This document shows positions 1,165 to 54,086 of a DNA stretch of 64,000 nucleotides, one piece after another. A program made the translations under genes and the position numbers. Location: positions 9,288-73,287 of the forward strand of contig CAWIXU010000004.1 in the NCBI GenBank assembly GCA_963840175.1, in the 5' to 3' direction. Positions within the stretch are counted from its first letter, which is position 1. Each line of letters opens with the position of its first letter. Below the pieces are notes generated by a model that was given only the letters and a program-made list of their open reading frames with translations, did not search any database and had not been told where the DNA came from. This stretch comes from an uncultured Acidimicrobiia bacterium (GTDB taxonomy: Bacteria > Actinomycetota > Acidimicrobiia > Spongiisociales > ZC4RG35).

Positions 1165-3255
1165 TGCGCCGTTTGCTCATCGTTTCGGCAGTTCTTGCGC
1201 TGATTGCGGGCTGATGGCACTGCCCGCCGGAGCGTTGGTTTCGGAGGCCTGTCCTTCCAACCTGCCCGCCGGAGCGCTTCGGTGACCTGGCCGGTTTGAG
1301 CACGGATGCTCTGGATGCCATCGATTGCGTTGCCCATTACAAGATCGCCGCAGGGCACCTCGGCGACGACATTCAGCCCCAATTCTTCTGTGCTTCGCTG
1401 GCAGATGGCCCTGTTCCTCACCAGAACGGTGACGGCTCTGGGAGTCGCCCTTCCCAACGGAGCCGGCCAGGGGTTCACCGACATCGGATCTATGCCGGCG
1501 GCGACCCAGACCGCCATCAATCAGATCCGCCAACTCGGAATCAGCCTGGGGACCTCCGCTACCTCCTTCAATCCGTTGGGCGTGGTGCCTCGCTGGCAAA
1601 TGGCTCTGTTCCTGAGCCGGCTCCTCTCAAGCGGTCGGGGTCTCGCTTCCCAACGGCGCCAGCCAGGGCTTCACCGACATCTCGGCCATGCCGGTCGGCG
1701 ACGCAGGTCGCGATCAACCAACTTCGCCAGCTCGGCGTCGCGCTGGGGACAACCGCAACCAGACCTTCTCGCCGTTCAGCGACGTCTTGCGCTGGCAGAT
1801 GGCGCTCTTCCTGGCCCGGTCGACCGAAACCGCGGGTGGCCTTCCGTTCCGATTGGCGGCGGCGCTGCCAGTCGACCACTCCTCCGACCTCGGGCACTGT
1901 CCCCTTGACAGTCACCGTCCGCAATCCCGACGGAAGCCTGGCCAGCGAACCGGCGAGTGGACGTGTTCGTGGCGGCATCGCTCGACAGCAACGGGCGCTG
2001 CGTGCTCGACAACGATGCTCATGTCAACGGAGGCGATGCCGGCTACCAACAGCAACTGCGTGCTCGACAACAATGATCCGCTCACCAATGGCAGCGGTGT
2101 CGTTACGGTCAACCTCACCCACGATGCGACTCAGGAAGTCGACACGATTTACTCCTGGACCGGCGAGGTCGGTGAAACGTTCGATTTGCAGGACGTCCGA
2201 GGCGAAGCGGCGGTGCAGCTCACCTGGGGTGCGGCTCCAACCGGCCTGACCATTCCAGCAAACGTGAGCGCCGGATTTGCTACGTCAGCGCGCGGTCAGG
2301 GCCCAACTGATCGGGCCCGGGGGCGCGGCAGTGACCCTGTCGGGTCAGAACATCAGGTTCACGGTGCAGCGCGGCAACCAGACGATTCTCACCCAGACGG
2401 TGATGACGGGAGCCGACGGAAGCGCCACTCTGACCTATGTCGGTCCGGCCGATCCTTCGGGAGCAGACGACGCTGCGGTCATCGACAACGTCACGGCGTT
2501 CTGGGACAAGGACCGGGACAACGTCGACGACGGCGCGGCCGAGTTCGACGACAGCGGCACCGTTACTTGGGACGATCTGCTTGCCCCCGGTTACGACCGC
2601 CTCTCTCAGCCAGAGTTCCTTGACGCAATCTGCTCGGCGAGTTCGCTTCGATCTCGGTCACCGTCCGCGACAAGTTCAGTCAGCCGATCGCCAACGCCGA
2701 CGTGACGTTCCAAACCGGACAGGCCGGTCCGACCGTCGCCACCACCAACGCCTCTGGAGTGGCCACTTTCCAGTACACGGTCGTTGGCACGGGCTTGGCG
2801 GACTCCGTCGACGCCAGCGTGGATCTCAATCGAGATGGCGACACCAACGATCCCGGTGACCTGGGCTTTGGTGGCGTCACCAACCTCATTCACTACTGGG
2901 TCGCGACCGCGCCGACGCTGGCCGGGATTGACCGTCGTTCGATGTGATTGCGATCAATGCCGGCGCCAACACGGTCGACGTCGTCCAGATCGGCACCGCC
3001 AACTACTACCGGCTCACCTACGACGCGAATGACCAGTTCAATGTCAACGGGGGTGGCTCGGAGAGCCTGGACCAGTTCGAGTCGGCATTGGTCGGTATGC
3101 TGCTTCCGGATCTCGACGGTCCGGGAGGCCAGGAGCTGATCGACCAATCCCTACTCCACACCTGCCGGCGCCGCCAGCGCGTTCCTGCTGAATACCTAGA
3201 GCACGCTCTGGCTAGCGCCTCGAGCGATTTTTGGGACGCGGAGCCGTCGCCGTAG
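1165..3255 (+). CDS. Large S-layer/surface protein with N-terminal SLH repeats and C-terminal Big-like Ig domains; several frame disruptions.
   Basis: Signal peptide MRRLLIVSAVLALIAG at 1165. At least four SLH repeats (TFSPNSSVLRWQMALFLTR, NPLGVVPRWQMALFLSR, FSPFSDVLRWQMALFLAR). From ~2280 the pieces read as Ig-like repeats (GSATLTYVGPAD, ASGVATFQYTVVG). Confidence 0.5.
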
Positions 3256-4292
3256 GGGCTCGGGATGTCTCCGAGGTCGCTCCCATCCGACTTCGAGCAG
3301 GCGGCGCGCCTCGGCGCCGATCCCGGCACCGGCCGCGACTCGGACCGCGAACGTGCCCATGACCTCGGGGCGTTCGGTCGAGTTGCGGACCACCACCAAG
3401 GGTCGTTTCAAAACCGACACCTCTTCGGCGATCCCTCCCGAATCTGAAATCATCAACGCCGCCTCGGCCTCGAGAGCCAAGAAAGTCGCGATAGCCGATC
3501 GGTTCAACGACCATGAGCTTGTGCGAGCAGAGGCTCCGAGGCCGAACTCCTCGGCCCGGGCGACCGAGCGAGGATGCAACGGCAGCAGGACCGGCAGTGG
3601 CAGCGAGGCGAGCTCGATTCAGAATGGTCGAGTACGTGTCTCGCGTCGTCGACATTCTCGGGTCGATGAAAGGTCGAGAGGATGAAGCGGCCGCTTCCAC
3701 GCCGATACCGAGCCAGAATTTCTCCTACGATCCGTGGGAGCAAGGCGGCGACCGCTTCGACCACCGTGTTGCCTGTCAACGCCACCCGTCCGCCGCGATC
3801 CCCTCGGCGTGCGAGGTTGTCGACCGAAGTTGGCGTCGGGGCGCAACAGAGGTTGCTCAGGTGGTCGGTGACCACCCGGTTGTGCTCCTCGGGCATCCCC
3901 CAGTCGTGGCTCCGCAGCCCCGCCTCGATATGACAGAGGAAGACCGAGCGGGCGTTGGCGGCGAGGGCTCCGGCCGTCACCGAGTTGGTATCCCCTTGAA
4001 CGAGGACGGCACGAGGCTGCTGCTCGGCGAATAGTTCGTCGAGTGAAGCGATGGCCGAACCGATCTGTTGGCCGCGGCTGATCCCGCCGACTTCGAGGAA
4101 GGTGTCAGGGGTTGGGAGGCCGAGGTCGCGGAAGAAGACCTCAGAGAGGTTGGGGTCGTAGTGCTGGCCGGTATGGACGACGAAGGCGGCGTCGCCCAGC
4201 AGATGAATGATGTGGGAGAGCTTGACGATCTCGGGCCGGGTACCCAGCACGACCGCGATTGACTTGGGTGGGAATCCGTACTGGTTGGTCAT
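3190..4292 (-). CDS. wecB: UDP-N-acetylglucosamine 2-epimerase (non-hydrolysing), frame disrupted near the C-terminal third.
   Basis: N-terminus KSIAVVLGTRPEIVKLSHII...HTGQHYD. C-terminal pieces MISDSGGIAEEVSVLKRPLVVVRNSTERPE and SPYGDGSASQKSLEAL lie in other frames. These are typical WecB/MnaA motifs. Confidence 0.8.
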
Positions 4293-11450: not shown

Positions 11451-11565
11451 GCTTACGAAGTATCAAGAACCGTTAACTACCGTCAAGTCCCTTAGAAACC
11501 TTCTTTTCGCGACTTCTGGATGCTTCAGCTTCTCCCCGGAGCGGGGATAGCGCGCGATCGCGTTT

Positions 11566-12126
11566 TCTTCCCCCGGAGGGGGGAGTACCCGAGCGAAGCG
11601 AGGGGGTAGGGGGCGTTTTCTCGAGACCCAGGAGCTCAACCCTCTTCTATTCCCCTCGAAAAGGAACTACTCGTTCAACATGGCCCGACCCCGTCACACC
11701 GACCTCGCCGCGAACGAGAGCACGGGAGCTTCAGAAACGGGATGACCGTCTCAGAGGCGCGGGTGTGGCAGGTGATCCGCGGCGGACAATGCGGCGCCCG
11801 GTTCCGTCGGCAGGTTCCGATCGGACGGTGGATCGTCGACTTCGCCAGTCTGCAAGCCACGACTGGTGCTCGAAATCGATGACGAGTCACACGACTGGCG
11901 TGACGAAACGGAACGCATCGAGTACATCGAAGCGGAGGGTTTTCCGATTTTGCGGCTGACAAACAAATACGTCGCCGAGGACCTCGGCGCCGTTCAGCGA
12001 ACGGTGAGCTTGTGGGTGGCGGAGCTCAAGGCAGGGCGAAGGCCGGAGTAGGGATCGCGTCTGGAGAGAACGCCCCCCTCGTCTGCCTCCTTCGTCGGCA
12101 GACACTCCCCCCTCCGGGGGAGAAAC
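11566..12126 (+). mobile_element. Copy 1 of a ~560 bp element bounded by ~50 bp imperfect G-rich terminal inverted repeats, carrying a disrupted DUF559 ORF. Extra partial inverted-repeat satellites lie at 11529-11548 and 12131-12150.
   Basis: Left end TTCTTCCCCCGGAGGGGGGAGTACCCGAGCGAAGCGAGGGGGTAGGGGGCGTT. Right end AACGCCCCCCTCGTCTGCCTCCTTCGTCGGCAGACACTCCCCCCTCCGGGGGAGAAAC, approximately its reverse complement. About 85% identical to copy 2 at 41559-42118. Confidence 0.7.
11680..12051 (+). pseudogene. DUF559 (Vsr/endonuclease-like) ORF of element copy 1, frame-disrupted in the middle.
   Basis: MTVSEARVWQVIRGGQCGARFRRQVPIGRWIVDFAS then shift, then LEIDDESHDWRDETERIEYIEAEGFPILRLTNKYV. Compare the intact copy at 41675..42043. 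Confidence 0.65.
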
Positions 12127-12175
12127 GGGAGATCCCCTCCGGGGGGAGAAATTCAGGTCTGGGGATGAAACGGAT

Positions 12176-14752
12176 TTAGCCCGAGGGTGGCGCAGGGGCG
12201 GCGGCCTGGCCGACGGTGATGTACACCGGGCTCTTGTACGTCATCGCCGTTCCCGGCCCGGGGGTCTGAGCGAGAACGACATCGACCTGGGCGGGGTCGG
12301 TGACCGGCACGTAGGTCGCGTACACGTCGACCCAGGTCCCAGTTGAGTAGATGAATCGGTTGATCGTTCGGTAGGCCTCGCTGATCGGTAGGCCGATCAC
12401 ACTCGGCAACGCGCCGCCAGGGACCTGGCCGTTCGAGACATATATACGAATCGGAAGCCCGGCTTCGACTTCGGCTCCCGAACCGAGCGACTGGAAAACG
12501 ACGGTGCCCGCGGCCTGCAGCGAGGGAATCGGGGTTCACGTTGGGGATGAGTTTGGCCTCGGTCGCCAACGACACTGCCTCGGCTTCGGTCTTGCCGATG
12601 AGATAGGGAACGATGGTGGTCGGGGGCTTGAGGAACGGCTGGAGCTCCTCTTCGGTCAGGCGTGGAAAGTCGAGTGCTTCGACATCGGTCAGCACCATCC
12701 GCATGAACTCGGCCCAGATCGGAGCCGGGACCGAACCACCGAAGACCCGTTCGTAATACTCACCGTGGATGCGAACGTTGCGCAGGGGAACCTGATCTCG
12801 CTCGTACCCCACCCAGACCGCAGTCGTGTACTGCGGAACGAAACCGACGTACCAGGCGTCGCGATAGTCCTGGTGGGTGCCGGTCTTTCCACCCTGGGGC
12901 CGACCGATGGCGGCTCGCTCGGCCGTTCCTTCCGCGGTCGGCACTTCGAGCAGCGGGATTCGCGCTGCCTCGGCGATCGGCGCGGCGATCACCTGCTGCT
13001 GCTCGACCTGGTGCTGGTAGAGCACCTGGCCGTCCTCGTCGAGGATGCGGTCGATCAGATAGGGCTCGGCGTAGAGGCCGTTGGTGGCGAAGGACGAATA
13101 GGCGGAAGCCATCTCCAAGGTCGAAACTGCACCGGTCCCCAGCACGATCGAAGGCACCGGCTGGCAGCGGTGAGGTGATCCCCATTCGGTGCGCGGTCTC
13201 CACTACCTTCTCCGGCCCTACCTGCAAGGAGAGCTGGGCGTAGATCACATTGATCGATCGAGAGGTGGCTTCCTGGAGGGTGATGCGGCCGGCGCTGGCC
13301 CCGGCATTCGACACGGTCCACTTGTTGGGATCGGGCCCATCCGAGCAGATCGTCGGGCAGGTCAGGATGCGAGGGCTCGACCCGTCATATGTGTTGCCGA
13401 GCGTGATGCCGTTCTCGAGCGCCGCGACCAGACCAAACGGCTTGAACGCCGAACCGGGGTTACGTCGACCCTGGACGGCGAGGTCGAACTGGCTCTGTTC
13501 GAAGGGGAGCCCCGAAGCCATCACCTCGACCGCCCCGGTCTGGTTGTTGACCATCGTCAAAGCTCCAGTTGGTGAGCAAGAGTTGGCCTCGGCGTACGAG
13601 GTCAGGTTCTCGATCGGCTCGCTGGGAAAGATTCTCGTGCAGAGTTGCAGGTTCTCTTCGTAGGAATAGAAGGGGAGCCACTCGAGCAGCATCGCATTCG
13701 CCGCTTGCTGCAAATTGAGATCGATGGTCGTTTCGATGGTCAGGCCCCCGCCACCGACGCAGTTGACATCGTCGGATGGGCAACCGAAGACCGAGATGGC
13801 GCGCTCCTCCAGGGTCTGGCCGAGAAAATCGAACTCGTGACGCGAGAGGTCGGACAGCTGCCGCATCACCTCGGTGCGCACGTGTTCCGCCTCGCCGCGG
13901 AACTCGATGTGCTCGAGCACCCCAAGGGGTCTTGACTTGGCGATCTCCGCCTGAGATTCAGTGGTCCAGTCCTGTTCGAGCATGAGGTCGATGACGTCGT
14001 TGCGCCGATCGAGAACTACCTCTGGATTGTCGCCGAGGGTCGTAGAGCGAAGGGTTGCGGATGAGCACCGCGAGGGTGGCGGCCTGATCCAGGGTCAGCT
14101 CGGACATCTCGCGGTGGAAGAACTCACGGGCCGCGGTCTTGACCCCGTAGGCGCCGGCACCGAAGTAGACCGAGTTCATGTAGAACTCGAGGATCTTGTC
14201 CTTCGAGTGGCGACGCTCGAGCTCGGCGGCGATAAACGCCTCTTTGATCTTCCGCTCGATCGTGACCTCGTCGCCGACGAAGACGTTTTTCACGACCTGC
14301 TGGGTGATGGTCGAACCGCCGCGGGTGTTGCCGCTGCGGAAGTTGTCGAGGGCAGCCGAGGCGATGGCCGGGAACGAGACGCCCTGATGGTCGTAGAAGC
14401 CTTTGTCCTCCGCCGCCAGGATCGCGTGTTGAAGGAGCAACGGCACCTCGTCGATCGGGGCCGGCTCGGAGTTGCGCCCGTCGTGGAGCTCGCCGATGAT
14501 TTCTCCGCTTGCCCATATCCGCGACACCCGTGACAGGTCGGGGAGGGTCAGAGTCAACGTCTCGACTTCAGGGACGTACTCGGCTCTTACCTTGTCGATG
14601 GCGGCATAGGCGGAGTTGGCGCCGAGGAAAGTGAAGAGGCCAACCCAGGTGCTGCCCAGGAGCGCGATCGACAGCAGTCCCGCCAGAGCCGGGAACCAGC
14701 GGCCACGACGCTCGCGCGCTTCCAGTTGGTGGATGAGGGATCGATTGGCCAT
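12176..14752 (-). CDS. ponA: Class A penicillin-binding protein (transglycosylase + transpeptidase + C-terminal PASTA); frame disrupted.
   Basis: N-terminal transmembrane segment; EDKGFYDHQGV and GGSTITQQVVKN (GT51); SAFKPF (SxxK) and KTGT in the transpeptidase part; PASTA-like C-terminus (12176..12409). Confidence 0.8.
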
Positions 14753-17740: not shown

Positions 17741-17775
17741 GTGAGACGTCAGATCAGACGTCAGACATCAGAATG
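17741..17775 (+). repeat. Arm of the tandem GTCAGACAT/GACGTCAGA repeat family (GTGAGACGTCAGATCAGACGTCAGACATCAGAATG).
   Basis: Direct reading. Inverted relative to the arm at 18620-18656 and matching the left arm of the hairpin at 45427-45459. Confidence 0.8.
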
Positions 17776-17799
17776 TCGTTGTAGCCAACGTTCGTGAAC

Positions 17800-39074: not shown

Positions 39075-39293
39075 TGCCGCTCATTGACCCCGTGCTTGCT
39101 GCGATCATGGTCTGCCCGTTCGATCACGGCGACCTCTTCGAGGACGAGGCCACGTCCCGGCTCGTCTGCGCGGTCTGCGGCCGTGCCTACCCGGTTGACG
39201 ACGGGATACCGATCATGCTCATCGAGGAGGCCGAGCTCCCGGGGGACGGCCCAGCAGAACGGGACGGTCCCGATGCCGGCTGAGGAAATGGAG
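39075..39293 (+). CDS. Trm112-family small protein.
   Basis: MPLIDPVLAAIMVCPFDHGDLFEDEATSRLVCAVCGRAYPVDDGIPIMLIEEAE. Confidence 0.55.
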
Positions 39294-40273
39294 AAGATGA
39301 TCGCCGGTCTTGGCGGACAGCTGCGTTGGGCTGCCGAGCCTGACGCACCGCGACCCGATCCCGGTCCCGGGCGGGTCTGATTGTGGCCGGGATGGGCGGC
39401 TCGGGCATCTCGGGCGATTTGGTCGCGGTGCTGGCGGCGGTGCCCGGTAACCGTCCACAAGAGCTACGGGTTGCCAGCTTGGGCGCGAACCGGCCCCCGG
39501 CTCGTGGTCGCGATGTCCTACACCGGCAACACCGAGGAAACGCTGAGCGCCGTCGAAGCGGCGACCGGCCTTGGGCTGACTCCCGGCGGTGGTCACGCTC
39601 GGGAGGGAAGCTCGGGGAGATGGCCGCGGCCAACGGATGGCCGATCGTCACGGTGCCCGGCGGGCTCCAGCCGCGGGCCGCCCTCGGCTACATGCTCGGG
39701 TCGTCTGCTGCACCTGGTCGAGGATGCGGTCGATCTCAAGCCCGGCGATCTGGCGGCGGCGGCCGACCTGGTCGATCGATCACCGAGCGGGCTCGGGCAC
39801 GACCTGGCAGCCGACCTCGCCGCCGGACTCCACGACCGGATCGCGATCGTCTACGGGATCGGCGGTCTCACCGCTCCGATCGCGCAGCGTTGGAAGACCC
39901 AGATCAACGAGAACGCCAAATGGCCCGCGTGGTGCAACGCGATGCCAGAGCTCGATCACAACGAGATCGTTTCCTGGACCTCGTTGTCGGCGGTGACGAG
40001 CCGCCACGTCGGGATCATCAGCCTCAGCGACGACTCCGAGAGCCCCGGATCGATGGACGCTCGATTCCGCCACACCTCCCGGCTCACCGAGCACGATGTG
40101 CCCTGGGTCGGCGAGGTGTGGTCGCAGGGGGTCAGCCGTCTGGAACGGATGGTGAGCCTCTGCGCCATGGGAGACTTGGTCTCCTCGAGCTGGCCCAGGC
40201 CGGAGGCATCGATCCGGTGCCGCGATACCCGAGCTCGAATCGCTCGAAACAGCTACTCGCCAAGGAGTCCTGA
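39290..40273 (+). CDS. SIS-domain protein (bifunctional phosphoglucose/phosphomannose isomerase-like); frame disrupted.
   Basis: MAGMGGSGISGDLVAVLAA (SIS P-loop-like) and (V)YGIGGLTAPIAQRWKTQINENAKWPAWCNAMPELDHNEI in a second frame. Equivalent to the gene beside pmmA in mycobacteria. Confidence 0.5.
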
Positions 40274-40274
40274 A

Positions 40275-41526
<1,252 letters not shown>

Positions 41527-41558
41527 GCCGAGGCCGGAAGACCAGAAGACCGTTTCTG

Positions 41559-42118
41559 TCTCTCCCCCGGAGGGGGGAGTACCGAAGCGAAGCGGAGGGG
41601 AGGGGGGCGTTATCTCTTAACGACGACGCTCAACCCTCTTCTATCCGGCCCGAAAAGGAACTAGTCGTGAGTGGATGCCAAGACCTGGTCACACCAACCT
41701 CGCCGCGACGAGAGCACGCGACCTTCGAAAGGAAATGACCGTCTCTGAGGCCCGGGTGTGGCAGGTGCTGAAAGGCAGGCAATGCGGGGCCCGGTTTCGC
41801 CGCCAGGTCCCGATCGGTTGTTGGATCGTGGACTTCGCCAGCCTGCGGCCTCGTCTTGTGCTCGAAATTGATGACCAATCACATGACTGGCGCGACGAAA
41901 CGGAGCGCATCGAGTACATCGAGGCGAGGGGCTTTCCGATTCTGCGCCTGACCAATGAATACGTAGCGAAGGATCTAGGTGCTGTTCAGCGAACGATCAG
42001 CTACTGGGTCGCAGACCTCAAAGCAGGACGACGACCGGAATAGGTTTCGAGCTAGAGAAAACGCCCCCCTCGTCTGCCTCCTTCGTCGGCAGCCACTCCC
42101 CCCTCCGGGGGGAGAAAC
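41559..42118 (+). mobile_element. Copy 2 of the inverted-repeat-bounded DUF559 element (intact cargo ORF).
   Basis: Left end TCTCTCCCCCGGAGGGGGGAGTACCGAAGCGAAGCGGAGGGGAGGGGGGCGTT. Right end AACGCCCCCCTCGTCTGCCTCCTTCGTCGGCAGCCACTCCCCCCTCCGGGGGGAGAAAC. Collinear with copy 1. Confidence 0.75.
41675..42043 (+). CDS. DUF559 domain protein (Vsr/restriction-endonuclease-like fold).
   Basis: EARVWQVLKGRQCGARFRRQVPIGCWIVDFASLRPRLVLEIDDQSHDW...RIEYIEARGFPILRLTNEYV is a textbook DUF559 pattern. Confidence 0.8.
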   Translation: MPRPGHTNLAATRARDLRKEMTVSEARVWQVLKGRQCGARFRRQVPIGCWIVDFASLRPRLVLEIDDQSHDWRDETERIEYIEARGFPILRLTNEYVAKDLGAVQRTISYWVADLKAGRRPE

Positions 42119-42421
42119 CGAATTGGGAGACGTGGCCACTCCCCTGCAGGGAGAGCCGAAGGAGAGACAACTAGGCGGTCGACCAGCAGGGGTCGTATTC
42201 GCAGCCGAACTCGAACGGCGGAAGAGTTTGCGGGATCGCCAGCGCCAGCACAACCGTGATTATCGCGAGCACGAGAAAAGCGGTTAAGTCAGTTTTTCGC
42301 GAAGATTGATGGGTGAAGGCACTGAGGTCAGTGCAGACCTTGTACGAAACCAGGGTGATCGCGACCAGATAGAGAACCGTCACCGTGCCCTGCCCCGAGC
42401 CCACATGGGGCGATCATAGAA

Positions 42422-45528: not shown

Positions 45529-48124
45529 ATGTCCATCTTTTCCAAGCTGCTCAAGGCCGGTGAAGGCAAGACCCTGCGCGAATTCGAGCGTCTCGTCGTC
45601 GAGGTCAATGCCCTCGAACCGACCATCTCAGCGCTGGATGACGCTCAACTAGCCAACCAGACCGTCGAGTTCCGGCGCCGGCTCGACGCCGGGGAGCCGC
45701 TCGATGACCTGGCCGTCGAGGCCTTCGCCACGGTCCGGGAGGCAGCGCAACGAGTCATCGGGGAGCGTCACTTCGACGTCCAGGTGATCGGCGCTTTGGC
45801 ACTCCATCGGGGGATGGTGGCCGAGATGAAGACCGGCGAGGGCAAAACCCTGGTTTCGTCGATGCCCGCCTATCTCAACGCCCTTCCTGGCACCGGCGTG
45901 CACATCGTCACCGTCAACGACTACCTCGCCTCCCGCGACGCCGACTGGATGGGCGCCATCCATCGTTTCCTCGGGCTCAACGTCGGGCTCATCCAAACCG
46001 GTATGGAACCCGGAAAGCGGCAATCCGGCCTACGCCGCCGACATCACCTACGGAACCAACAACGAGTTCGGGTTCGACTATCTGCGTGACAACATGGCGA
46101 TGCGGGCGAGCGACCGTGTCCAGCGCGGCCACGTTTATGCGATCGTCGATGAGGTCGACTCGATCCTGATCGACGAAGCCCGCACCCCGTTGATCATTAG
46201 CGGCCGGCTGTCGGATGCGGCCAAGTGGTATCGAGACTTCGCTCGAATTGCGAACCGGTTACGACGCGATGAGCACTACGAAGTCGATGAAGCCAAGCGA
46301 CAGGTATTGACCACCGAGGAAGGCGTCGGATTCGTCGAAGAGATACTCGGAGTCGAAAACCTCTATGACCACGCCGCGGTCGACTTCGTCCACCATCTCG
46401 AGTCATCGCTGCGAGCCAAGGAGCTCTACCAGCGGGACGTGGAATATCTCGTTGACCAGGGCGAAGTCAAGATCGTTGACGAATTCACCGGGCGCGTACT
46501 CGAAGGTCGTCGTTATTCAGAAGGGCTTCACCAGGCCATCGAGGCGAAGGAAGGGGTGAAGATCAAAGAAGAGAATCAGACCCTCGCCACGATCACTCTC
46601 CAGAACTACTTCCGGCTCTACCAGAAGCTTGCCGGGATGACCGGCACCGCCGAAACCGAAGCGGCCGAGCTGGCGCAGATTTATGGACTCGAAGTGCTGG
46701 TCATCCCGCCGAACCGGACCGTGGCGCGAGCCGACCAACCCGACCTGGTCTTTAAGTCAGAGGATGCCAAGTTCCAAGCAGTCGTCGATGACATCGTCGC
46801 GCGCCATGAGGCGCAACAGCCCATCCTGCTGGGCACCGTCTCGATCGAGAAGTCCGAGCGTCTCTCGAAGATGTTGCAAAAGCGGGGCATCGAGCATGAA
46901 GTGCTCAACGCCAAGAATCATGCCCGGGAGGCTGAAATCATCGCGCAGGCGGGGCGTCCCGGCGCGGTGACCGTGGCCACCAACATGGCCGGGCGGGGAG
47001 TCGACATCAGGCTGGGTGGGAATCCCGAAGGTCTGGCGCGCGTCGAGCTCAAGCGCCAGCAGGTGCCGGAAGAGGAGTTCGAGAAAAAGCTCGCCGAAAC
47101 CACTGCCCGCTACGCCGCCGAGATCGCTCCGATCAAGGAAAAGGTGATCGAAAGCGGTGGGCTTTACGTCGTGGGCACCGAGCGTCACGAATCCCGCCGG
47201 ATCGACAATCAGCTGCGTGGTCGTTCGGGCCGCCAGGGTGATCCGGGCGAGTCCCGGTTCTATTTGTCGCTGGGAGACGACCTGATGCGTCGTTTCTCTG
47301 GGGATCGAGTTTCGTCGTTGATGGATCGGATGAAGATTCCCGACGACGTACCCATCGAGGCCGGCATGGTGACCAAGGCCATCGAACGAGCGCAGAAAAC
47401 GGTGGAAGCACAGAACTTTGAGCTTCGCAAGAACGTCCTCAAATTCGATGAGGTGATGAACAAGCAAAGAGAAGTCATCTACGACTGGCGCGTGGATTTG
47501 CTCGAGGCGTCGGGTGAGGATCTGGTCACAGAATGGATCGAGGTCGTAGTCGCCGATACCGTCGAGGCGGTTTTTCCACCCGAGCTCGCACCGTCGGAAT
47601 GGGATTGGGAATTGCTCAACAAAGAGCTAGTTCAGATTTATCCGTCAACGCTCAAAGAGCCGGGACCGGAAGGATCCTCGCTGGAGGATGTCATCGACGC
47701 GGCCGTCGAAGAGGCCAACGCGGCCTATGCAGCGAAGAGCAAGGAATTGGGGCTCGAGAACATGCGCCAGGTCGAGCGCCAGGTGATTCTGTCGGTGATC
47801 GACAACAAGTGGCGCGAGCACCTATCCGAAATGGACTACCTGCGCGCTGGAATCGGCCTGCGCGCCATGGGCCAACGCGATCCGCTGGTCGAATATCAGC
47901 GCGAGGGCTACTCGATGTTCAGCGAACTGGTCGAATCGGTGAAGCGTGACACCGTTCGCTATTTGTTCCACGTCCAATTGGCGGAGCCCGCCGCCCCGGC
48001 TGCCCCCAAAGTCGTCAACGATGATCAGTCAAAGTCAATTCGAAGCAGCGGCGCCGTGGGCCGCAACGATCCCTGCCCATGTGGCAGTGGCAAGAAATAC
48101 AAACGCTGCCACGGTGCGGCGTAA
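45529..48124 (+). CDS. secA: Preprotein translocase ATPase SecA; one frame disruption near 46030.
   Basis: [42 protein letters not shown], and C-terminal zinc finger [14 protein letters not shown]. Confidence 0.9.
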
Positions 48125-48145
48125 CCAGGTGCTAGAAGTTCGCTC

Positions 48146-49284
48146 ATGACCGTAGAGACGACGGAACCGCACGCTTTGATCGCCGACATCCGCAACCGCC
48201 TGGCTGAGGCCCGGAGGTTTCTTTGACCTTGACCGCAAAGCCACCGAGCTCGCCGAGTTAAAGGAGCAGGCGGCCGATCCCGGCCTGTGGAACGACCCCG
48301 ACCAAGGGCGCCAGGTCACCCAGCGCCTGGCGGCGTTGGAGCGGACCATCGACAGCGTCGCCAAGCTCGAGCGAACTCTGGATGATTCGGAGGTCCTGCT
48401 CGAGCTCTCCGAAGAGGCCGCCGATCCCTCTGTGCGGGCGGAGGTCGTGTCCGAGCTGGCTGCTCTCTATCGCAGCCTGGCCGGTCTCGAACGCGAGTCG
48501 CTCTACTTCGACGAGTACGACGATCACAACGCCATCCTCTCGGTGCACGCCGGCGCCGGCGGCGTCGATGCGCAGGATTGGGCGGAGATCCTCGTCCGCA
48601 TGTACCAGCGCTTTCTCGAGGAGAACCGGTTCTCGGTAATCGTCGAGGAGATCAGCGAAGGGGAGGAGGCGGGCGTGAAGTCGGTGACCATGACGGTGCG
48701 GGGGGAACACGCCTATGGAACGCTCGAGTCCGAAAGGGGAACCCACCGCTTGGTGCGGATCAGTCCCTTCGACTCGAACTCCCGGCGGCACACCTCCTTT
48801 GCGGGTGTCGATGTGGTGCCCGAACTCGCCGACGAGGAGGGGATGGAGATCGATCCCGATGATCTCCGCATCGACACCTATCGGTCACAGGGAGCAGGCG
48901 GTCAGCATGTGAACAAGACCGACTCGGCCGTGCGGATCACCCACCTTCCCACGGGGATCGTGGTTCAGTGCCAGAACGAGCGGAGTCAACTGCAAAACCG
49001 GACCCGGGCCATGGCGATTCTGAAGGCGCGGCTCCACGAACTCGCTCGTCAGCAACGGATCACCGCAAATCGATGAGATCCGCGGTGAGCAAGGCGCAGC
49101 CGCCTGGGGCCAGCAGATTCGCAGCTATGTCATGCAGCCCTATCAAATGGTCAAAGACCTCCGCACCGATGTCGAGGTCGGCAACATCTCAGGCGTGCTC
49201 GACGGCGATCTCGACGAGTTCATCGACGGCTACCTCCGCTGGCGCCGCCTCCAGCACGAGGAATTGCGAACCCAGGGTTCGTAG
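48146..49284 (+). CDS. prfB: Peptide chain release factor 2, with the natural programmed +1 frameshift at codon 27 and an additional unplanned frame disruption near 49075.
   Basis: Frame 0 reads [26 protein letters not shown] then TGA. The +1 frame continues [15 protein letters not shown]... to [17 protein letters not shown] and ...[19 protein letters not shown]. Confidence 0.85.
48213..48227 (+). promoter_or_regulatory. prfB programmed +1 ribosomal frameshift cassette: internal Shine-Dalgarno GGAGG, a 3-nt spacer, then the slippery CTT TGA C.
   Basis: GGAGGTTTCTTTGAC matches the E. coli AGGGGGTATCTTTGAC architecture. Confidence 0.85.
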
Positions 49285-49393
49285 GTGCGTTGGACGTCTC
49301 TAACGGCCCACAGAACGGACGGAAGTTCGGTTTCGCACTCTGAGCCGGTTACCCTGAACCGGCCATCCGGGCATTCACGATGGGTCAGGACCA

Positions 49394-50111
49394 ATGATTC
49401 GGCTGCGTGACGTCACCAAGGTTTATGAGGGCGGAGTTGTGGCCGTCCGTGACATCAATCTCGACATCCAAAAAGGGCGCTTTCGTCTTCCTGGTCGGCC
49501 CCTCGGGGTCGGGCAAGTCGACGCTGATCCGGCTGTTGCTCCGTCAGGACACCGTGACCCGGGGCACGATCTGGGTCGCAGGCAAAGACATCACCCAGCT
49601 GCCCGCCTGGAAGGTGCCATTCCTCCGTCGTTCGGTCGGCACCGTCTTCCAGGACTTCAAGCTCCTGCCCAATAAGACGGTGAGTGAGAACGTCGCTTTC
49701 GCTCTCGAAGTCCTCGGCAAGCCCCGGGCAGTGATCGGTCCACAGGTCCAGCAAGTGCTCGAACTGGTCGGGCTCAAGGACAAGGCCGATCGCTATCCCC
49801 GCCAGCTGTCCGGTGGCGAACAGCAGCGAGTCTCGATTGCTCGTGCTTTCGTCAACCGGCCACCGATCCTCCTCTGCGATGAGCCCACGGGCAACCTCGA
49901 CCCGGCGACGTCGGTGGGGATCATGCGTTTGCTCGATCGGATCAACCGCTCGGGGACGACGGTCGCGATGGCGACTCATGACCACGCCATCGTCGATGCC
50001 ATGCAACGACGAGTGGTGCAGCTGGAGAACGGACGGATCATCCGCGACGAGCAGGCCGGGCGTTATGAAGAGCAGGTCGCCGAAGTCAGCGACGGGAGTG
50101 TCGCCCCGTGA
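49394..50111 (+). CDS. ftsE: Cell-division ABC ATPase FtsE; one frame disruption near 49470.
   Basis: [35 protein letters not shown]. Confidence 0.85.
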
Positions 50112-51050
50112 ATCGTTTCGGCTTCCTGGCGCGCGAGGCTTTCATCAACCTGCGTCGCAACCTTTTGGTGGTGATGGGAGCGGTGCTCGCGGTGTTCATC
50201 TCGCTGGCCCTTGCCTTCGGAGCCCTGGTCATCAACCAGATGCTGCGGATCAACACGCTCGCCTGGCAAGACGGAGTGCACATCATCGCCTTCCTTCATG
50301 ACGAAGGTCTGCCCGGAATCCCCACGGGCGCCCATGACGCACTTGTGGCCGAGGTTGCGAGTTGGGAGGAAGTCGCTCAACGTCAGCTACATCGACAAGG
50401 CCGAGGCTTACGTCGAGTTCCAGCAGATTTTCGCCGACCGTCCCGAGTATTTGGAGAATGTCGATCCGACTGTGTTGCCGGCGTCGGTTCGGATCGAGTT
50501 AACGGATCTCGAGCTCTACCGAGATGTTCAGTTCCGGCTGGCGAGCGAAAGCCAATTGATCTTTCGGGTAGCGACCTTCGGCGAGCAGATCGAACAACTC
50601 TCTTCACTGTCGACCGTACTCAATCTGCTCGGACTGGGTCTCGCCCTTGTGCTCGGCGTCTCGGCAGTGATCCTTATCGCCAACACCATCCGCATGGCCA
50701 TCTACGCCCGACGCGACGAGGTGGCGATCATGAAATTGGTTGGCGCCTCCAACTGGTTTGTCCGCGTCCCCTTCATCCTCGAAGGGATGATCGAAGGACT
50801 GATCGGGGCGGGTCTGGCGGTCGCCGCGGTGTGGGTGGCTTTCCGCAATCTTCGGTCCCTCGGTGACTCGATCGAGATCGTCTCGTTTGCGGTGCCCGAC
50901 CGGTTCTTCCTCACCTGGTCGATTGTGATTCTTCTCTTCGGAGCGGCAGCAGGAGTGCTGGGCAGCGTGCTGGGGCTCAGCCGATACCTGAAAGACGACG
51001 AGGGGAGCCGGCCGGTTGCGGTCGGTGCGCGGGTCTTAGAGCCGCTGTGA
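50108..51050 (+). CDS. ftsX: Cell-division permease FtsX; one frame disruption near 50370.
   Basis: N-terminal transmembrane segment, periplasmic domain, and C-terminal four-helix region [29 protein letters not shown]. Confidence 0.8.
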
Positions 51051-52243
51051 AGTCCGCACGGCTCGCCGTGCTTTTCGTCGCCCTCGTCCTCTTCTTTGGG
51101 GCGGCTTCACCTGTGGTGGCGCAAGATCCGGCGGCCGAGCTCCGCGAGGTCCAGAACGAGCTCAACCGGGTCGAACAGGCAATCAGAGCCGCTCGCACCG
51201 AAGCCAGTTCAGTCGGCCAGCAGGTTGTCGCCGCCCAAGCCGCCATGGCTGCTGCACTCGACACCTACAACGCCGCCCAGGCCCGGGTCGAGGAACTGAT
51301 TCGCGCCGTTCAACGGACAGCGGCGCAGGTGGTTTCCCTCAAGGGACAGGTGGCGACGCTCGAACGCCTCCTGGCGAAGACTGCGGTCGAGCTCTCGAAC
51401 ACCAAGGAACGACTCGAACAGACCGCGGTCAACCTCTATATGACCGCTAGCGCCGTGCCCGGAGCCGACCTCTTTAGTCGGGCATCCGTCGCCGAGGCCG
51501 CTACTGCTCTGGCTTATTCGTCGGTGCTCTTCGATCAGGACACCGATGTCTTCACTGCGTTCGAGCTACTCCAGCGCGAAGAGGAAAGGCAACGCACACA
51601 GATCGTCGGGATGAAGACTGAAACCGAAGGCGAACTGGCGCGTCTTGGTGAGGAACGAGCGAATCTCGAGATTGAGCGCGACCTTGCCGCCGCCGCCCTG
51701 GCGGAAGCGCAAACCCAAGCCGCCAAGGTGCAGACGCTGCTCGACTCGATCCGCAACCAGATCGCCGCGGCGGAAGAACACAAGGACGGTCTCGAAGCCG
51801 ATGCAGCGGCGCTTGAAGCTGAGATCGACCGACTCGCTACCAAAGAGGGAACTGCGCCCTCGGTCTTGTCGTGGCCGGTCAACGGCGCGGTGAGCTCGCC
51901 GTTCGGCTATCGGGTTCATCCCATTCTCGGAGTGAAAAAGCTTCATACCGGCGTCGACATCAACGGCGCGAGTGGCGCGCCGATCGTCGCGTCCGGTGCA
52001 GGCACCGTGATCCTCGCTCAGACTTATGGGGGTTACGGTCGTGCCGTCGTGATCGACCACGGCGGCGGGTTGACGACTCTTTACGCCCATCAGTCGCAGA
52101 TGGCGGTGTCGGTAGGGGAGGAGGTGAGCCGGGGCGAAGTTATCGGTTACGTCGGTTGCAGTGGAAGCTGCACCGGCCCGCATCTCCATTTCGAGGTTCG
52201 GGTGAGTGGCGTTCCGGTCGATCCGCTTGGCTATCTCCGATGA
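51047..52243 (+). CDS. Coiled-coil M23 metallopeptidase (EnvC/RipC-like FtsEX partner). Intact.
   Basis: Signal peptide, about 250 aa of coiled coil, then HTGVDINGASGAPIVASGAGTV...GHGGGLTTLYAHQS...GCSGSCTGPHLHFEVR (LytM/M23 motifs). Confidence 0.8.
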   Translation: MKSARLAVLFVALVLFFGAASPVVAQDPAAELREVQNELNRVEQAIRAARTEASSVGQQVVAAQAAMAAALDTYNAAQARVEELIRAVQRTAAQVVSLKGQVATLERLLAKTAVELSNTKERLEQTAVNLYMTASAVPGADLFSRASVAEAATALAYSSVLFDQDTDVFTAFELLQREEERQRTQIVGMKTETEGELARLGEERANLEIERDLAAAALAEAQTQAAKVQTLLDSIRNQIAAAEEHKDGLEADAAALEAEIDRLATKEGTAPSVLSWPVNGAVSSPFGYRVHPILGVKKLHTGVDINGASGAPIVASGAGTVILAQTYGGYGRAVVIDHGGGLTTLYAHQSQMAVSVGEEVSRGEVIGYVGCSGSCTGPHLHFEVRVSGVPVDPLGYLR

Positions 52244-52704
52244 AGAAACCCGAAGGCGTCAAGGTCATCGCCTCGAACCGGCGGGCGCGCCACGACTACG
52301 AGATCCTCGATACTTTCGAAGCCGGCCTCGTCCTCATCGGCTCGGAGGTAAAGAGCTTGCGGGAGGGCCAAGGGCAGCTCAAGGACAGCTTCGCCCATAT
52401 TCGCGACGGCGAGATCTTTTTGGTCGGTTGTTATATCGCTCCCTACGTCTTCTCCCGGGCTGGCGGCCATGAACCGGAGCGAACCCGGAAGCTTTTGATG
52501 CACCGTCGCCAGATCGATCGCCTGGCGTCCGAGCTGGCCGAAAAGGGGCTCACCCTGGTTCCGCTTCAGCTCTACTTCAAAGAGGGCAAGGCCAAGGTTG
52601 AGCTGGGGCTGGCACGGGGAAAGCGCACCATCGACAAGCGAGAGACCGTCAAGAAGAGGGAGCAGGAGCGAGAGATGGAGCGCGCGCTCCGGCGTCGGCC
52701 CTAG
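52240..52704 (+). CDS. smpB: SsrA-binding protein. Intact.
   Basis: IASNRRARHDYEILDTFEAGLVLIGSEVKSLR...KLLMHRRQI. Confidence 0.9.
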   Translation: MKKPEGVKVIASNRRARHDYEILDTFEAGLVLIGSEVKSLREGQGQLKDSFAHIRDGEIFLVGCYIAPYVFSRAGGHEPERTRKLLMHRRQIDRLASELAEKGLTLVPLQLYFKEGKAKVELGLARGKRTIDKRETVKKREQEREMERALRRRP

Positions 52705-52709
52705 GTCTT

Positions 52710-53620
52710 GGCAGCGAACAGGTGTTCGACTAGGCTGTCGGAGTGGCGGAGTTTCGGTGGAGCCAGCTGGCGACCTCGCAGGACGGTCTCTTCGAGCAAG
52801 TCACGCCGGGTCGTCGGTCGTGGCGAGTACAAGGGACTGACCTTCCACGAGATCGAGGCTCGCTCGATCATCAGCAAAGCCCCTCCCTCGACCCCGTGGT
52901 TCGGCTACTCGATCAACGCCTACAGGGGATGCTCCCATGCTTGTGAATTACTGCTTCGCTCGGCCTACCCATGAATACCTCGGGTTCAACATGGGCGAGG
53001 ACTTCGAACAGCAGATCGTCGTCAAGACCAATGCGGTCGAGTTGTGTCGCGCCGAGACCGAGCCTGCGCGCTGGGCTGGCGATTCGATCGCGATGGGAAC
53101 GAACACCGATCCGTATCAAGCCGCCGAGGGCAAGTACAAGCTCACCAAGGGGATCATCGAGGTGCTTGGCCGAGCGTGGCAACGGATTCTCGATCCTCAC
53201 CAAGTCACCGCTGGTCCTTCGGGATCTCGACCTGATCGCAGAGGCTGCCAAGACGAGCGCAGGTCTCGGTCTCGTTTTCGGTGGCGACTCTCGACGAGGA
53301 CGTCTGGCGTCGAACCGAGCCCGGTGCACCGCATCCCCGCAAACGACTCGATGCCCTCGCCAAGCTGCGGGAGGCGGGTGTCAGCGGAGGCGTCATGGTG
53401 GCGCCGGTTCTGCCCGGCATCTCTGACAGTCCAGAGCAGGTGGCCGCCGTGAAGAAAGCGGCGCGGGAGGCTGGCGCCGAATGGGTCAACGAGGTGCAAG
53501 CTCCACCTGCGCGGTGTCCGCCCACACTTCCTGAAATGGCTGGCCCAGGACAGCCCGAATCTGGTTGCCAATTATGAGGCAAGCTATCCAGAGCGGCGGC
53601 CCACGCGAGCCCAAGCGAGC
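52710..53620 (+). CDS. Radical-SAM protein of the SPL/photolyase-like (Rv2578c-type) family; frame disrupted.
   Basis: FHEIEARSIISKAPPSTPWFGYSINAYRGCSHAC.YCFARPTHEYLGF and MGTNTDPYQAAEGKYKLT. Confidence 0.55.
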
Positions 53621-53673
53621 CCGACGCAGCTTCTCTCCCCGACCAACTTCGGCTCGGCCGTTCTTCGTAATCG

Positions 53674-54025
53674 TGGAGGCGGCGGGAATCGGACCCGCGT
53701 CCCATGAGTCGTCAGCGCCGGCATCTCCGAGCGCAGCCGTCGGCGAGCTTGTCGGCAAGAAGGACCCCAACGGCGGGCTTCCCACTCGCTTATCCGGAGT
53801 TGATCTTTGCCCTCCGGTCCCGGATCCCGGAGGACGCATCCTGCATTGCGACGCCCGATTCCGGCGAGGCAGGCGCCCACCGGGCGGACGGGCTGCGTTA
53901 TTTAGGCAGCCAGTGCGAAGTTGTCTTCGGCACTTGTGTTTGTTTCCGGCTCTTTAACGAGGTTCCGGAGACCTCGGCTCGCTTCCGACGCATCAACACT
54001 CATGGTCGAAACCATTTCGCCCCCA
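53674..54025 (-). ncRNA. ssrA: tmRNA (ssrA). Predicted tag peptide AEDNFALAA.
   Basis: Minus-strand 5' end GGGGGCGAAATGGTTTCGACCATGAG. Tag reading frame GCC GAA GAC AAC TTC GCA CTG GCT GCC TAA. The 3' end is tRNA-like: GGACGCGGGTCCGATTCCCGCCGCCTCCA. Confidence 0.85.
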
Positions 54026-54086
54026 TGGGCTGATCGCAATTCTACGGGTATTCAGAGAATCCGTGTTCGCCTATCTTCTGCGGAAA

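Follow-up and report, generated by a model that had tools for sequence, protein, structure and literature searches.

Among the dispersed repeats of bacteria, the BoxC/PIT repeats were reportedly described by Bachellier (1999) and Hoyne (2000), while the repetitive extragenic palindromic (REP) sequences, their REPIN doublets and the cognate REP-associated tyrosine transposases (RAYTs) are said to go back to Nunvar (2010), Bertels and Rainey (2011) and Ton-Hoang (2012); RAYTs are also regarded as domesticated. Homing endonucleases of the EDxHD type are represented by I-Bth0305I (PDB 3r3p), reportedly the work of Taylor et al. in 2011. The present analysis concerns two units, each carrying a gene of the DUF559 family between structured inverted ends, in a stretch of 64,000 nucleotides from an uncultured Acidimicrobiia bacterium (contig CAWIXU010000004.1), referred to as a whole as the window. 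With about even confidence, we regard these units as those members of a REP-class interspersed repeat family that bear an open reading frame (ORF), with DUF559 as the cognate nuclease in a partnership similar to REPIN-RAYT or to homing. This reading draws on the observed anatomy of the units, the marks of selection on the protein and on the hairpins, the ORF-less doublets, the three states of an insertion site and the pairing of gene and repeat across phyla. The repeat class, the protein fold and the concepts of REPIN-RAYT, homing and the miniature inverted-repeat transposable element (MITE) are already known. New, in that the searched literature did not contain them, are the combination of DUF559 with BoxC/PIT/TM-like repeats and a system of interspersed repeats that has a Vsr-like nuclease as its only protein.

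The closest described relatives of the repeats, to judge by their layout, are the BoxC/PIT/"intrastrand triplex motif" repeats. Holder et al. (2015) list 23 BoxC/PIT/TM_ECO copies, in which types A and B form inverted pairs (PMC4666352). TM loci show raised rearrangement and are hot spots between close relatives, no transposase, integrase or other mobility function has ever been found near TM_ECO, and the repeats, which are described across E. coli strains, form triplexes in vitro and stall polymerases (PMC4666352). The repeats studied here are likewise intergenic, G/C-rich and dispersed, follow the order pyrimidine block, short loop, purine block and mirror purine block, come in two subtypes that pair inverted to doublets of about 100 bp, and lie at rearrangement-prone loci. 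However, the blocks are CTCCCCCC / GGGGGGAG here and CCCTCNCCC / GGGNGAGGG there, and loop 2 measures 13-27 nt and holds a covarying hairpin of its own, whereas the TM_ECO loop has 3 nt. The consensus CCCTCNCCC-N3-6-GGGNGAGGG-N3-GGGNGAGGG does not fit the ends in the window, which share the BoxC/PIT/TM_ECO architecture but belong to a different family. Published work names no gene associated with BoxC/PIT/TM_ECO.

Two collinear copies with about 85% identity had been reported in the initial annotation of the window, and this was borne out by a MAFFT alignment over both units with a column identity of 85%. Broken down by segment in a global alignment, the identity is 82% for the left end (L-end), 67% for the leader, 81% for the ORF, and 88% for the trailer together with the right end (R-end). 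Both units, each of about 570 bp, follow the same plan, with bipartite inverted ends of about 60 bp, a leader of about 58 nt and the DUF559 gene. Of the boundaries first drawn, the right end of copy 2 (42118) was retained, while the left ends are best set at 11562 and 41552, the start of the conserved GTTTCT, so that copy 1 spans 11562-12126 and copy 2 spans 41552-42118. An assembly duplication was rejected as the origin of the two copies, because they are only 81-85% identical and their flanks are unique. The parts of the units are as follows.

11530-11548, no strand: left satellite of copy 1, a solitary outer-hairpin unit (TTCTCCCCGGAGCGGGGAT) just outside the unit.
11562-11622, plus strand: L-end of copy 1, with GTTTTCTT, then the outer hairpin CCCCC-GGA-GGGGGGAG, loop 2 with the mini-hairpin GCGAAGC, and the mirror G-run with the box GGGGGCGTTTTCTC.
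11623-11679, plus strand: leader of copy 1, with the conserved motif CGAAAAGGAAC at its end.
11680-12051, plus strand: DUF559 ORF of copy 1, spread over three frames by three +1 insertions.
12052-12126, plus strand: trailer and R-end of copy 1, with the box GAGAGAACGCCCCCC, the hairpin CTGCC-N9-GGCAG, the outer hairpin CTCCCCCC-TCC-GGGGGAG and then AAAC; folding z -2.7.
12133-12151, no strand: right satellite outer-hairpin unit of copy 1, stopping 1 nt short of the stop codon (12153-12155) of the 3'-most of the ORFs over which the gene of a penicillin-binding protein (PBP) is split.
41531-41551, no strand: left extra flank of copy 2, GAAGACC repeats (AGGCCGGAAGACCAGAAGACC), common to the sister metagenome-assembled genome (MAG) locus L005 and missing from empty sites.
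41552-41616, plus strand: L-end of copy 2, GTTTCTGTCTCTCCCCCGGAGGGGGGAGTACCGAAGCGAAGCGGAGGGGAGGGGGGCGTTATCTC.
41617-41674, plus strand: leader of copy 2, with CCCGAAAAGGAAC 14-20 nt 5' of the ATG.
41675-42043, plus strand: DUF559 gene of copy 2, intact, 122 aa, predicted Vsr-like PD-(D/E)xK fold.
42044-42118, plus strand: trailer and R-end of copy 2, AGAGAAAACGCCCCCCTCGTCTGCCTCCTTCGTCGGCAGCCACTCCCCCCTCCGGGGGGAGAAAC; folding z -2.3.
42119-42170, no strand: right extra flank of copy 2, with the solitary satellite hairpin CTCCCCTGCAGGGAGAG at 42139-42155; the flank is missing from empty sites.
42171-42404, minus strand: convergent 77-aa gene, whose stop codon bounds the right extra flank of copy 2.

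The structured inverted ends described at the outset proved to be bipartite inverted modules at all four ends. The hairpin CTCCCCCC-GGA-GGGGGGAG, which follows GTTTCT, makes up the outer part and the box GGGGGGCGTT(T/A)TCTC the inner part, with the variable loop 2 between them. In each module, an 8-bp C/G hairpin is joined by a smaller one with a GNA-type loop and by a G-run that mirrors the purine arm of the first hairpin; the resulting mirror arrangement GGGGGGAG ... GAGGGGGG can be read in the end sequence. The 18-nt core CTCCCCCGGAGGGGGGAG, with up to three mismatches, occurs four times in the 64 kb, in each case at one of the four ends, as opposed to a mean of 0.33 in shuffled sequences, where 0 of 100 shuffles reach four. 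In an independent scan of the whole window, perfect pyrimidine/purine hairpins with a stem of at least 7 bp were also confined to these ends. The satellites noted earlier on both sides of copy 1 are real, and copy 2 has one as well, on its right side only. In loop 2, a small hairpin is always present, usually with a GNA loop, examples being GCGAAGC, CCGGC-GNA-GCCGG, GGCCC-GNA-GGGTC and CTGCC-N9-GGCAG. For the analysis of covariation, 16 ends were collected with a regular expression that forced the outer helix and left the inner (loop-2) helix free: 98% of the cells pair, and changes on both sides occur in four of five loop-2 helix pairs, with the controls well below, so that the hairpin structure of the ends is under selection. 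Single-strand folding also predicts the hairpins, with z values of about 0 for the L-ends and of -2.3 and -2.7 for the R-ends. The covariation is the better evidence, because shuffles rich in C-runs and G-runs fold equally well. An intrinsic terminator was rejected on reading the sequence, in which no T-run follows the hairpins; no terminator scan was made.

The intact 122-aa protein ascribed to copy 2 was recovered and matches the Pfam family DUF559 (PF04480) with 87 bits at a cut-off of 20.6 (E 9.6e-25, rounded 1e-24), and the fragments of copy 1 reach 35.6 and 20.4 bits. A sequence search of the PDB returned 3hrl, a structural-genomics entry for DUF559, as the sole match (E 2.6e-12). An AlphaFold (AF2) model built from 34 homologues, with a predicted local distance difference test (pLDDT) of 91.7 and a predicted template modelling score (pTM) of 0.85, agrees with the fold proposed earlier, Vsr/PD-(D/E)xK. 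Its best Foldseek match in the PDB is 3hrl (TM-score on the target, TMt, 0.91), followed by the catalytic domain of the homing endonuclease I-Bth0305I (3r3p; prob 1.0, TMt 0.68-0.72, 17-19% identity). PvuRts1I/AbaSI and then Vsr are weaker matches (for Vsr 1cw0/1vsr, E 0.24-0.4 and TM 0.39-0.49), and TnsA is weak too. The Vsr profile PF03852 did not match the copy 2 protein, DUF559 alone being reported at E <=0.01. With 59.9 bits against a cut-off of 218, the protein also falls below the threshold of NCBIfam PRK09767, the YcjD equivalog, and is a relative of YcjD, not an equivalog. The residues E25, W29, F41-R-R-Q44, E64, D66, H70, R78 and R91 are invariant in the family and D53 nearly so (34-35 homologues), and the predicted catalytic acidic/His cluster (E64, D66, H70, D53) is present in both window copies. 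As a side observation, the Foldseek matches 6z1p_AS and 9i05_X* (prob 0.84-0.98) place a DUF559-like fold in mitochondrial ribosome proteins of Tetrahymena and Toxoplasma.

Sources label the homologues as very-short-patch-repair endonucleases. Vsr, DUF559, DUF2726 and I-Bth0305I have been grouped in one PD-(D/E)xK clade, in which I-Bth0305I (PDB 3r3p) is a relative of the same fold already proven to be a homing endonuclease (PMC3424549). VsrA of Caulobacter is itself a DUF559 protein; it damages DNA in vivo, is SOS-induced and has a functional link to a cytosine methyltransferase (PMC12907096). The comparison of the two window genes gave a dN/dS of 0.11 and a dS of 0.81, which indicates purifying selection on the gene and, as initially proposed from the sequence divergence, a long separation of the copies. 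Regarding a phage origin, no homologue was found among 50,697 phage records, and only 34 plasmid records contain one.

The broken frame of copy 1 was confirmed in so far as single-base insertions lie at about 11713, 11733 and 11854; that copy 1 is a decayed pseudogene is doubtful. When the three insertions are removed, a stop-free frame of 122 aa results, 85% identical to copy 2 at the amino acid level and with the catalytic residues kept (LEIDDESHDW). Since this frame reads through, with that identity and a dN/dS of 0.11, both copies have evolved as functional genes. Compared with a syntenic MAG with intact genes, the window shows 20 single-base indels in a pgi-like gene and 7 in ahcY, with dense single-base indels, mostly insertions, at 39200-41100, but none in the P450 gene at 42.4-43.8 kb. 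The class A PBP gene next to copy 1 (12153-14752) is likewise spread over three frames. These indels look like patchy consensus error of the assembly rather than pseudogenisation, and, given this patchiness and the low dN/dS, the frameshifts of copy 1 are probably a consensus artefact as well and not decay.

A search of related genomes for further copies with the same termini had been proposed, and several were found, in the form of ORF-less miniatures. A scan for the bipartite end pattern over reference genomes, one per species, yielded 17 loci: ten matches in one Acidimicrobiia MAG (MFD09206.bin.1.94), mostly parts of ORF-less doublets, three in two other Acidimicrobiia MAGs and four in a MAG labelled Gammaproteobacteria, of whose contigs at least L015 shows synteny with the window, at about 70% identity. 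A Kitasatospora match (L002) is without a partner end and was counted as chance. No DUF559 ORF or remnant was detected in the 17 loci by tblastn with the DUF559 protein, which means that the ends mostly occur without the ORF. Ten doublets with inverted ends could be delimited, with 99-199 bp between the end-pattern matches, and the related Acidimicrobiia MAGs contain many such doublets of 99-215 bp with the same ends. Without their ORF, the window units align with them from end to end. The order in the doublets is L-end, leader ending in TCGAAAAGGAAC, ORF slot, GAGAAAACGCCCCCC and R-end, and the motif CGAAAAGGAAC at the end of the leader is also retained. The position of the slot does not vary among eight doublets that are diverged and come from different sites, and no doublet contains ORF debris. 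On account of the constant slot and the missing debris, the doublets are not simply the results of separate decay events. The alternatives are that the doublets propagate themselves as a lineage without the ORF, or that the ORF forms a module of its own.

Two side observations concern these loci. Outside some doublets, the flanks are mutually inverted (L008 7718-7729/7913-7924, GGTGTTG...CAACAC; L011 915-926/1042-1053, TCTGG...CCAGA), which hints at insertion into pre-existing hairpins, for instance terminators. Locus L015 (CAXMQV010000023.1), from a MAG labelled "uncultured Gammaproteobacteria", is collinear with window 45558-54030 at about 68-84% nucleotide identity and carries the same repeat family in the form of 99-bp doublets; this MAG is probably mislabelled or mis-binned.

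Sites in different states were found in the relatives. Synteny with window 38.6-47.0 kb is seen at the sister MAG locus L005. Where the window carries its ORF-bearing unit, 3' of ahcY, L005 has an ORF-less doublet of about 215 bp, between flanks that are 86-94% identical. The doublet of L005 shares with the window unit the outer boundaries and the GAAGACC left flank, but its interior is unrelated, its loop-2 subtypes are different and its orientation is opposite. In L108, the closest relative of L005, only 9 nt separate ahcY from the convergent gene, and ahcY abuts or overlaps the next gene in five more lineages (L109/110, L111-116, L117, L118/119 and L120). Empty sites, which had been named as something to look for, thus exist for copy 2 in at least six related lineages, relative to which its unit is an insertion. 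The GAAGACC-repeat tract on the left of the element (window 41531-41551, L005 about 2920-2945) is missing from all empty sites. The tree of the flanks is (window,(L005,L108)). Under either history of the site (see below), turnover at the ahcY locus is far faster than in its flanks. At 63-72% identity, homologues occur in three unrelated gene contexts with the same style of ends, collinear with the ORF. Target-site duplications were also looked for and none was consistent: adjacent matches amount to 0-3 nt in ten elements, and none was seen at the empty/filled junctions. The reverse situation, a site empty in the window and occupied in a relative, is also found.

17753-17782, no strand: site empty in the window, 30 nt; the syntenic locus L012 has an ORF-less doublet of about 175 bp (L012 3005-3179) plus about 50 nt on each side.

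The association of gene and repeat is not restricted to the relatives of the window. A metagenome scan provided 80 DUF559 loci with 33-63% identity, and a locus was scored as flanked when the 220 nt upstream and the 220 nt downstream of the ORF gave a local alignment score of at least 25, direct or inverted. By this test, flanking repeats are present at 54% of the 68 testable DUF559 loci, compared with 3% of 65 control ORFs on the same contigs (Mann-Whitney p 1e-7), an 18-fold difference in frequency. Perfect pyrimidine/purine hairpins are 24-fold denser within 200 nt of the ORF than elsewhere (3.36 against 0.139 per kb). The repeats are lineage-specific and the layout is shared, consisting of a pyrimidine block, a short loop, a purine block, often a hairpin of the GGCCGAAGGCC type, and a second purine block; it was seen in contigs of 46-69% GC and in a Rhodospirillales MAG. 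As shown by this comparison, DUF559 genes across phyla are bracketed by the version of such repeats that belongs to their own lineage. It had been considered initially that the termini could be REP-like and unrelated to the ORF; they are indeed REP-like and mostly ORF-less, but not unrelated, as their presence beside DUF559 is strongly non-random across phyla.

A frequent periodic pattern is R-end, L-end, ORF, R-end, L-end, in which long direct repeats bracket the ORF. Either unequal recombination or the integration of a circle that carries one R|L junction is compatible with it. Direct repeats of 115-150 nt, formed by a composite R-end plus L-end, stand on both sides of the ORF in L090, L039, L037, L036 and L025, and L090 also has tandem DUF559 copies at about 2270-2820. 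In L026, an array of about 1 kb (2355-3301) with about ten hairpin units, resembling a bacterial interspersed mosaic element, lies 3' of a DUF559 gene 59% identical to that of the window, and an ORF without Pfam match has been called across it. Several DUF559 ORFs (for example P0045, P0047, P0031; YcjD ...RRSPSP) read into the downstream repeat and end in tails such as SPLVGEG or SPVKGEGAGG, so that in those lineages the repeat begins at or before the stop codon.

A direct connection to the described repeats is found in E. coli K-12, where the repeat 3' of the DUF559 gene ycjD is exactly TM_ECO no. 9 (1,351,204-1,351,239), 168 nt from the stop codon. The gene is accessory, being present in 3378 of 5426 complete E. 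coli genomes (62%) and absent from 38%, with a median of one place per genome. It fills the sapF-fabI site in place of the eefRABCD efflux operon, and at least two independent losses of eef have been inferred (PMC12817139). The presence of a module of nuclease and repeat at a site of recurrent rearrangement is suggestive. Between the ycjD stop codon and TM_ECO no. 9 (L027, NC_000913.3 1351040-1351406), a translation made by eye, ...ENMETVLENIRQGLNRPS, resembles the YcjD C-terminus NEETVLENILQELNRRSPSP; on this reading by eye, the stretch suggests a partial duplicate of the 3' end of ycjD and past recombination at the repeat.

With regard to mechanism, we infer that the nuclease may act on its own repeats and that these spread by repair. 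The DUF559 protein would nick or cleave at or next to the structured end modules of its own repeat family, and repair of the break would copy another member of the family, for which the near-identical outer hairpins would act as homology arms. In this way, the ORF module could be copied into ORF-less doublets, which amounts to homing with co-conversion; as palindromes that are almost identical, the outer hairpins would allow this in either orientation. The same process would drive replacement, inversion and loss at occupied sites, and the nuclease may also mobilise doublets in trans. Such a system would be a functional analogue of REPIN-RAYT in which a PD-(D/E)xK nuclease replaces the HUH transposase. 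The mechanism is plausible because VsrA damages DNA in vivo and the closest characterised fold is that of a homing endonuclease.

The similarity to REPIN-RAYT systems lies in short extragenic palindromes that are present many times and arranged as inverted doublets, in a gene of low copy number with the repeats on its flanks, in a separate repeat variant for each gene lineage and in selected single-strand hairpins. In contrast to them, the gene encodes a Vsr-like PD-(D/E)xK nuclease instead of a Y1 HUH (IS200/IS605-like) transposase and lies inside the doublet, in the ORF slot; the repeats are without a GTAG/CGTC tag, and the ten matches in one MAG are not a genome-wide copy number. I-Bth0305I is the closest functionally characterised fold, from the same PD-(D/E)xK clade as Vsr and DUF559 (PMC3424549), and has a similar acidic/His cluster, here E64-x-D66-D-x-x-H70-D; alleles with the ORF, without it and empty occur at one site. 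However, it resides in phage group I introns or inteins within conserved genes and has extra DNA-binding regions, whereas the window protein consists of the 122-aa domain without additions and is encoded in an intergenic repeat doublet. As to residence, the window gene is not in an intron, intein or host gene; ORF-less doublets with the ORF slot at a constant position exist, and one orthologous site holds such a doublet, which is not a simple ORF-less allele. Vsr and VsrA belong to the same fold superfamily, and VsrA has a DUF559 domain (PMC12907096), but the window genes have neither a linked cytosine methyltransferase nor a Pfam Vsr match, and an embedding in repeats is undescribed for the vsr and vsrA genes.

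Several points weigh against a repeat family with DUF559 as its nuclease. The nuclease activity of the window protein is predicted from its fold and cleavage at the repeats from the model, and the association could be regulatory or reflect a cis-preference, not catalysis. By the criteria used, about a third to a half of the DUF559 loci are without a flanking repeat, and ycjD of E. coli has the repeat on just one side. The segment missing from the empty sites (41531-42170) exceeds the unit bounded by terminal inverted repeats (TIRs) by 21 and 52 nt. The flank tree calls for one of two histories: a single insertion with later replacement of its interior and a clean loss, or two insertions at the same place. 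The L005 doublet is neither an ORF-less version of copy 2 nor a simple precursor, being inverted and having other loop-2 types, so that homing would have to involve co-conversion and either orientation. Furthermore, RecA-dependent repair would rely on homology arms of about 20-60 bp, which are short for it, and MFD09206.bin.1.94 was seen in 8-kb blocks only, so that a cognate DUF559 gene could lie elsewhere in this MAG.

Among the other explanations, a domesticated structure-processing factor survives best, although we consider it unlikely. DUF559 would then resolve or nick the hairpins or triplexes of the repeats, for example at stalled forks, and be inherited together with the repeats without spreading them. 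This would suit the TM_ECO-like block layout, with triplexes in vitro and stalled polymerases known for TM_ECO (PMC4666352), the covarying hairpins, the SOS induction of VsrA and a gene that usually occurs once or a few times per genome, as in E. coli with its median of one place. It leaves unexplained why the gene lies inside the doublet in most lineages, why gene and ends behave as an indel and why 38% of E. coli genomes are without ycjD, though TM repeats are described across strains (PMC4666352). It also overlaps in part with the preferred partnership of nuclease and repeat, as RAYTs are considered domesticated too.

That DUF559 is an ordinary host gene, a Vsr-like mismatch or repair endonuclease with REP-like repeats as bystanders and copies arising by duplication or horizontal transfer, is quite improbable. 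The purifying selection (dN/dS 0.11), the functional tie between VsrA and a cytosine methyltransferase (PMC12907096), the annotation of the homologues and the position of most repeat copies far from any DUF559 gene are what such a gene would lead one to expect. The enrichment of flanking repeats (18-fold) and hairpins (24-fold) over controls or other regions is not, and the same holds for the gain and loss of gene and repeats as one indel and for the collinear, co-diverged ends and ORF in both copies and in the 63-72% homologues; moreover, no methyltransferase gene is adjacent in the window and PF03852 gives no match.

The least likely of the readings is a classical autonomous TIR transposon with MITE derivatives, in which DUF559 would be the transposase, acting by cut-and-paste or copy-and-paste and on the doublets in trans: the inverted ends of about 60 bp, the ORF-less derivatives with the same ends, the finding of both empty and occupied sites and the copies in unrelated contexts fit it, but it is opposed by the lack of a consistent target-site duplication (0-3 nt in ten elements), an inserted segment larger than the TIR-bounded unit, the long direct instead of inverted repeats around the ORF at many loci, the inverted same-site doublet with other end subtypes, and a 122-aa single-domain PD-(D/E)xK protein that is not a known strand-transfer type. 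To our knowledge, no single-domain PD-(D/E)xK nuclease has strand-transfer activity, and TnsA, the only transposition protein of this fold known to us, works with a DDE partner. DUF559 is the sole ORF inside the units, which contain no DDE, HUH, serine or tyrosine transposase. The units resemble MITEs and their parent TIR transposons (Correia/NEMIS, Nezha) in their TIRs, ORF-less miniatures, intergenic position at gene ends and potential for long hairpins; they differ in having neither target-site duplications nor a DDE or other transposase, and in palindromic ends that also occur solitarily. Because of the missing duplications and transposase, a classical MITE with its parent transposon is not the best fit, and a REPIN/RAYT-like or homing-like system fits better. 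The MITE-like or homing-type selfish element suggested in the initial annotation is partly supported, as a real repeated unit with structured inverted ends and a nuclease-fold cargo that is an insertion relative to several related genomes.

The neighbour of copy 1 is the class A PBP gene and that of copy 2 is the AdoHcyase gene (ahcY). Together, the immediate neighbours of both units comprise the PBP, an unknown 190-aa ORF, AdoHcyase, a 77-aa membrane ORF and a P450, and no 5-methylcytosine methyltransferase gene is among them; only these immediate neighbours were checked. The PADLOC defence-system models gave no match. Rfam at the gathering threshold found nothing at either unit, and its sole match in the window is a transfer-messenger RNA gene (RF00023, 157.7 bits) at 53671-54024 on the minus strand.

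In a wider sense, DUF559 nucleases including YcjD of E. coli could be the cognate enzymes of the BoxC/PIT/"triplex-motif" repeats, and the two would make up another system of the REPIN-RAYT type, present across phyla, built on a Vsr-like PD-(D/E)xK nuclease and spread by gene conversion that the nuclease triggers between repeat copies, instead of by transposition, a proposal we make tentatively and with somewhat less than even confidence. That no mobilising activity is known for DUF559, as remarked initially, agrees with the literature search, in which no paper linking DUF559 or ycjD to mobility or to BoxC/PIT/TM-like repeats was found, most subscription journals being outside the search. The BoxC/PIT/TM repeats, known since the 1990s, mark rearrangement hot spots, and hundreds of bacterial genomes contain them; the members of DUF559, a very large family, are routinely given the wrong annotation Vsr. 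If true, a partnership of the two would explain the spread of the repeats and the role of DUF559, and would give the repeat class an enzyme and a mechanism. It would be testable in E. coli by means of ycjD and the 23 TM_ECO copies, and could yield small structure- or sequence-specific nucleases. The few enzymes by which populations of repeats are maintained within a genome would then include a PD-(D/E)xK nuclease.

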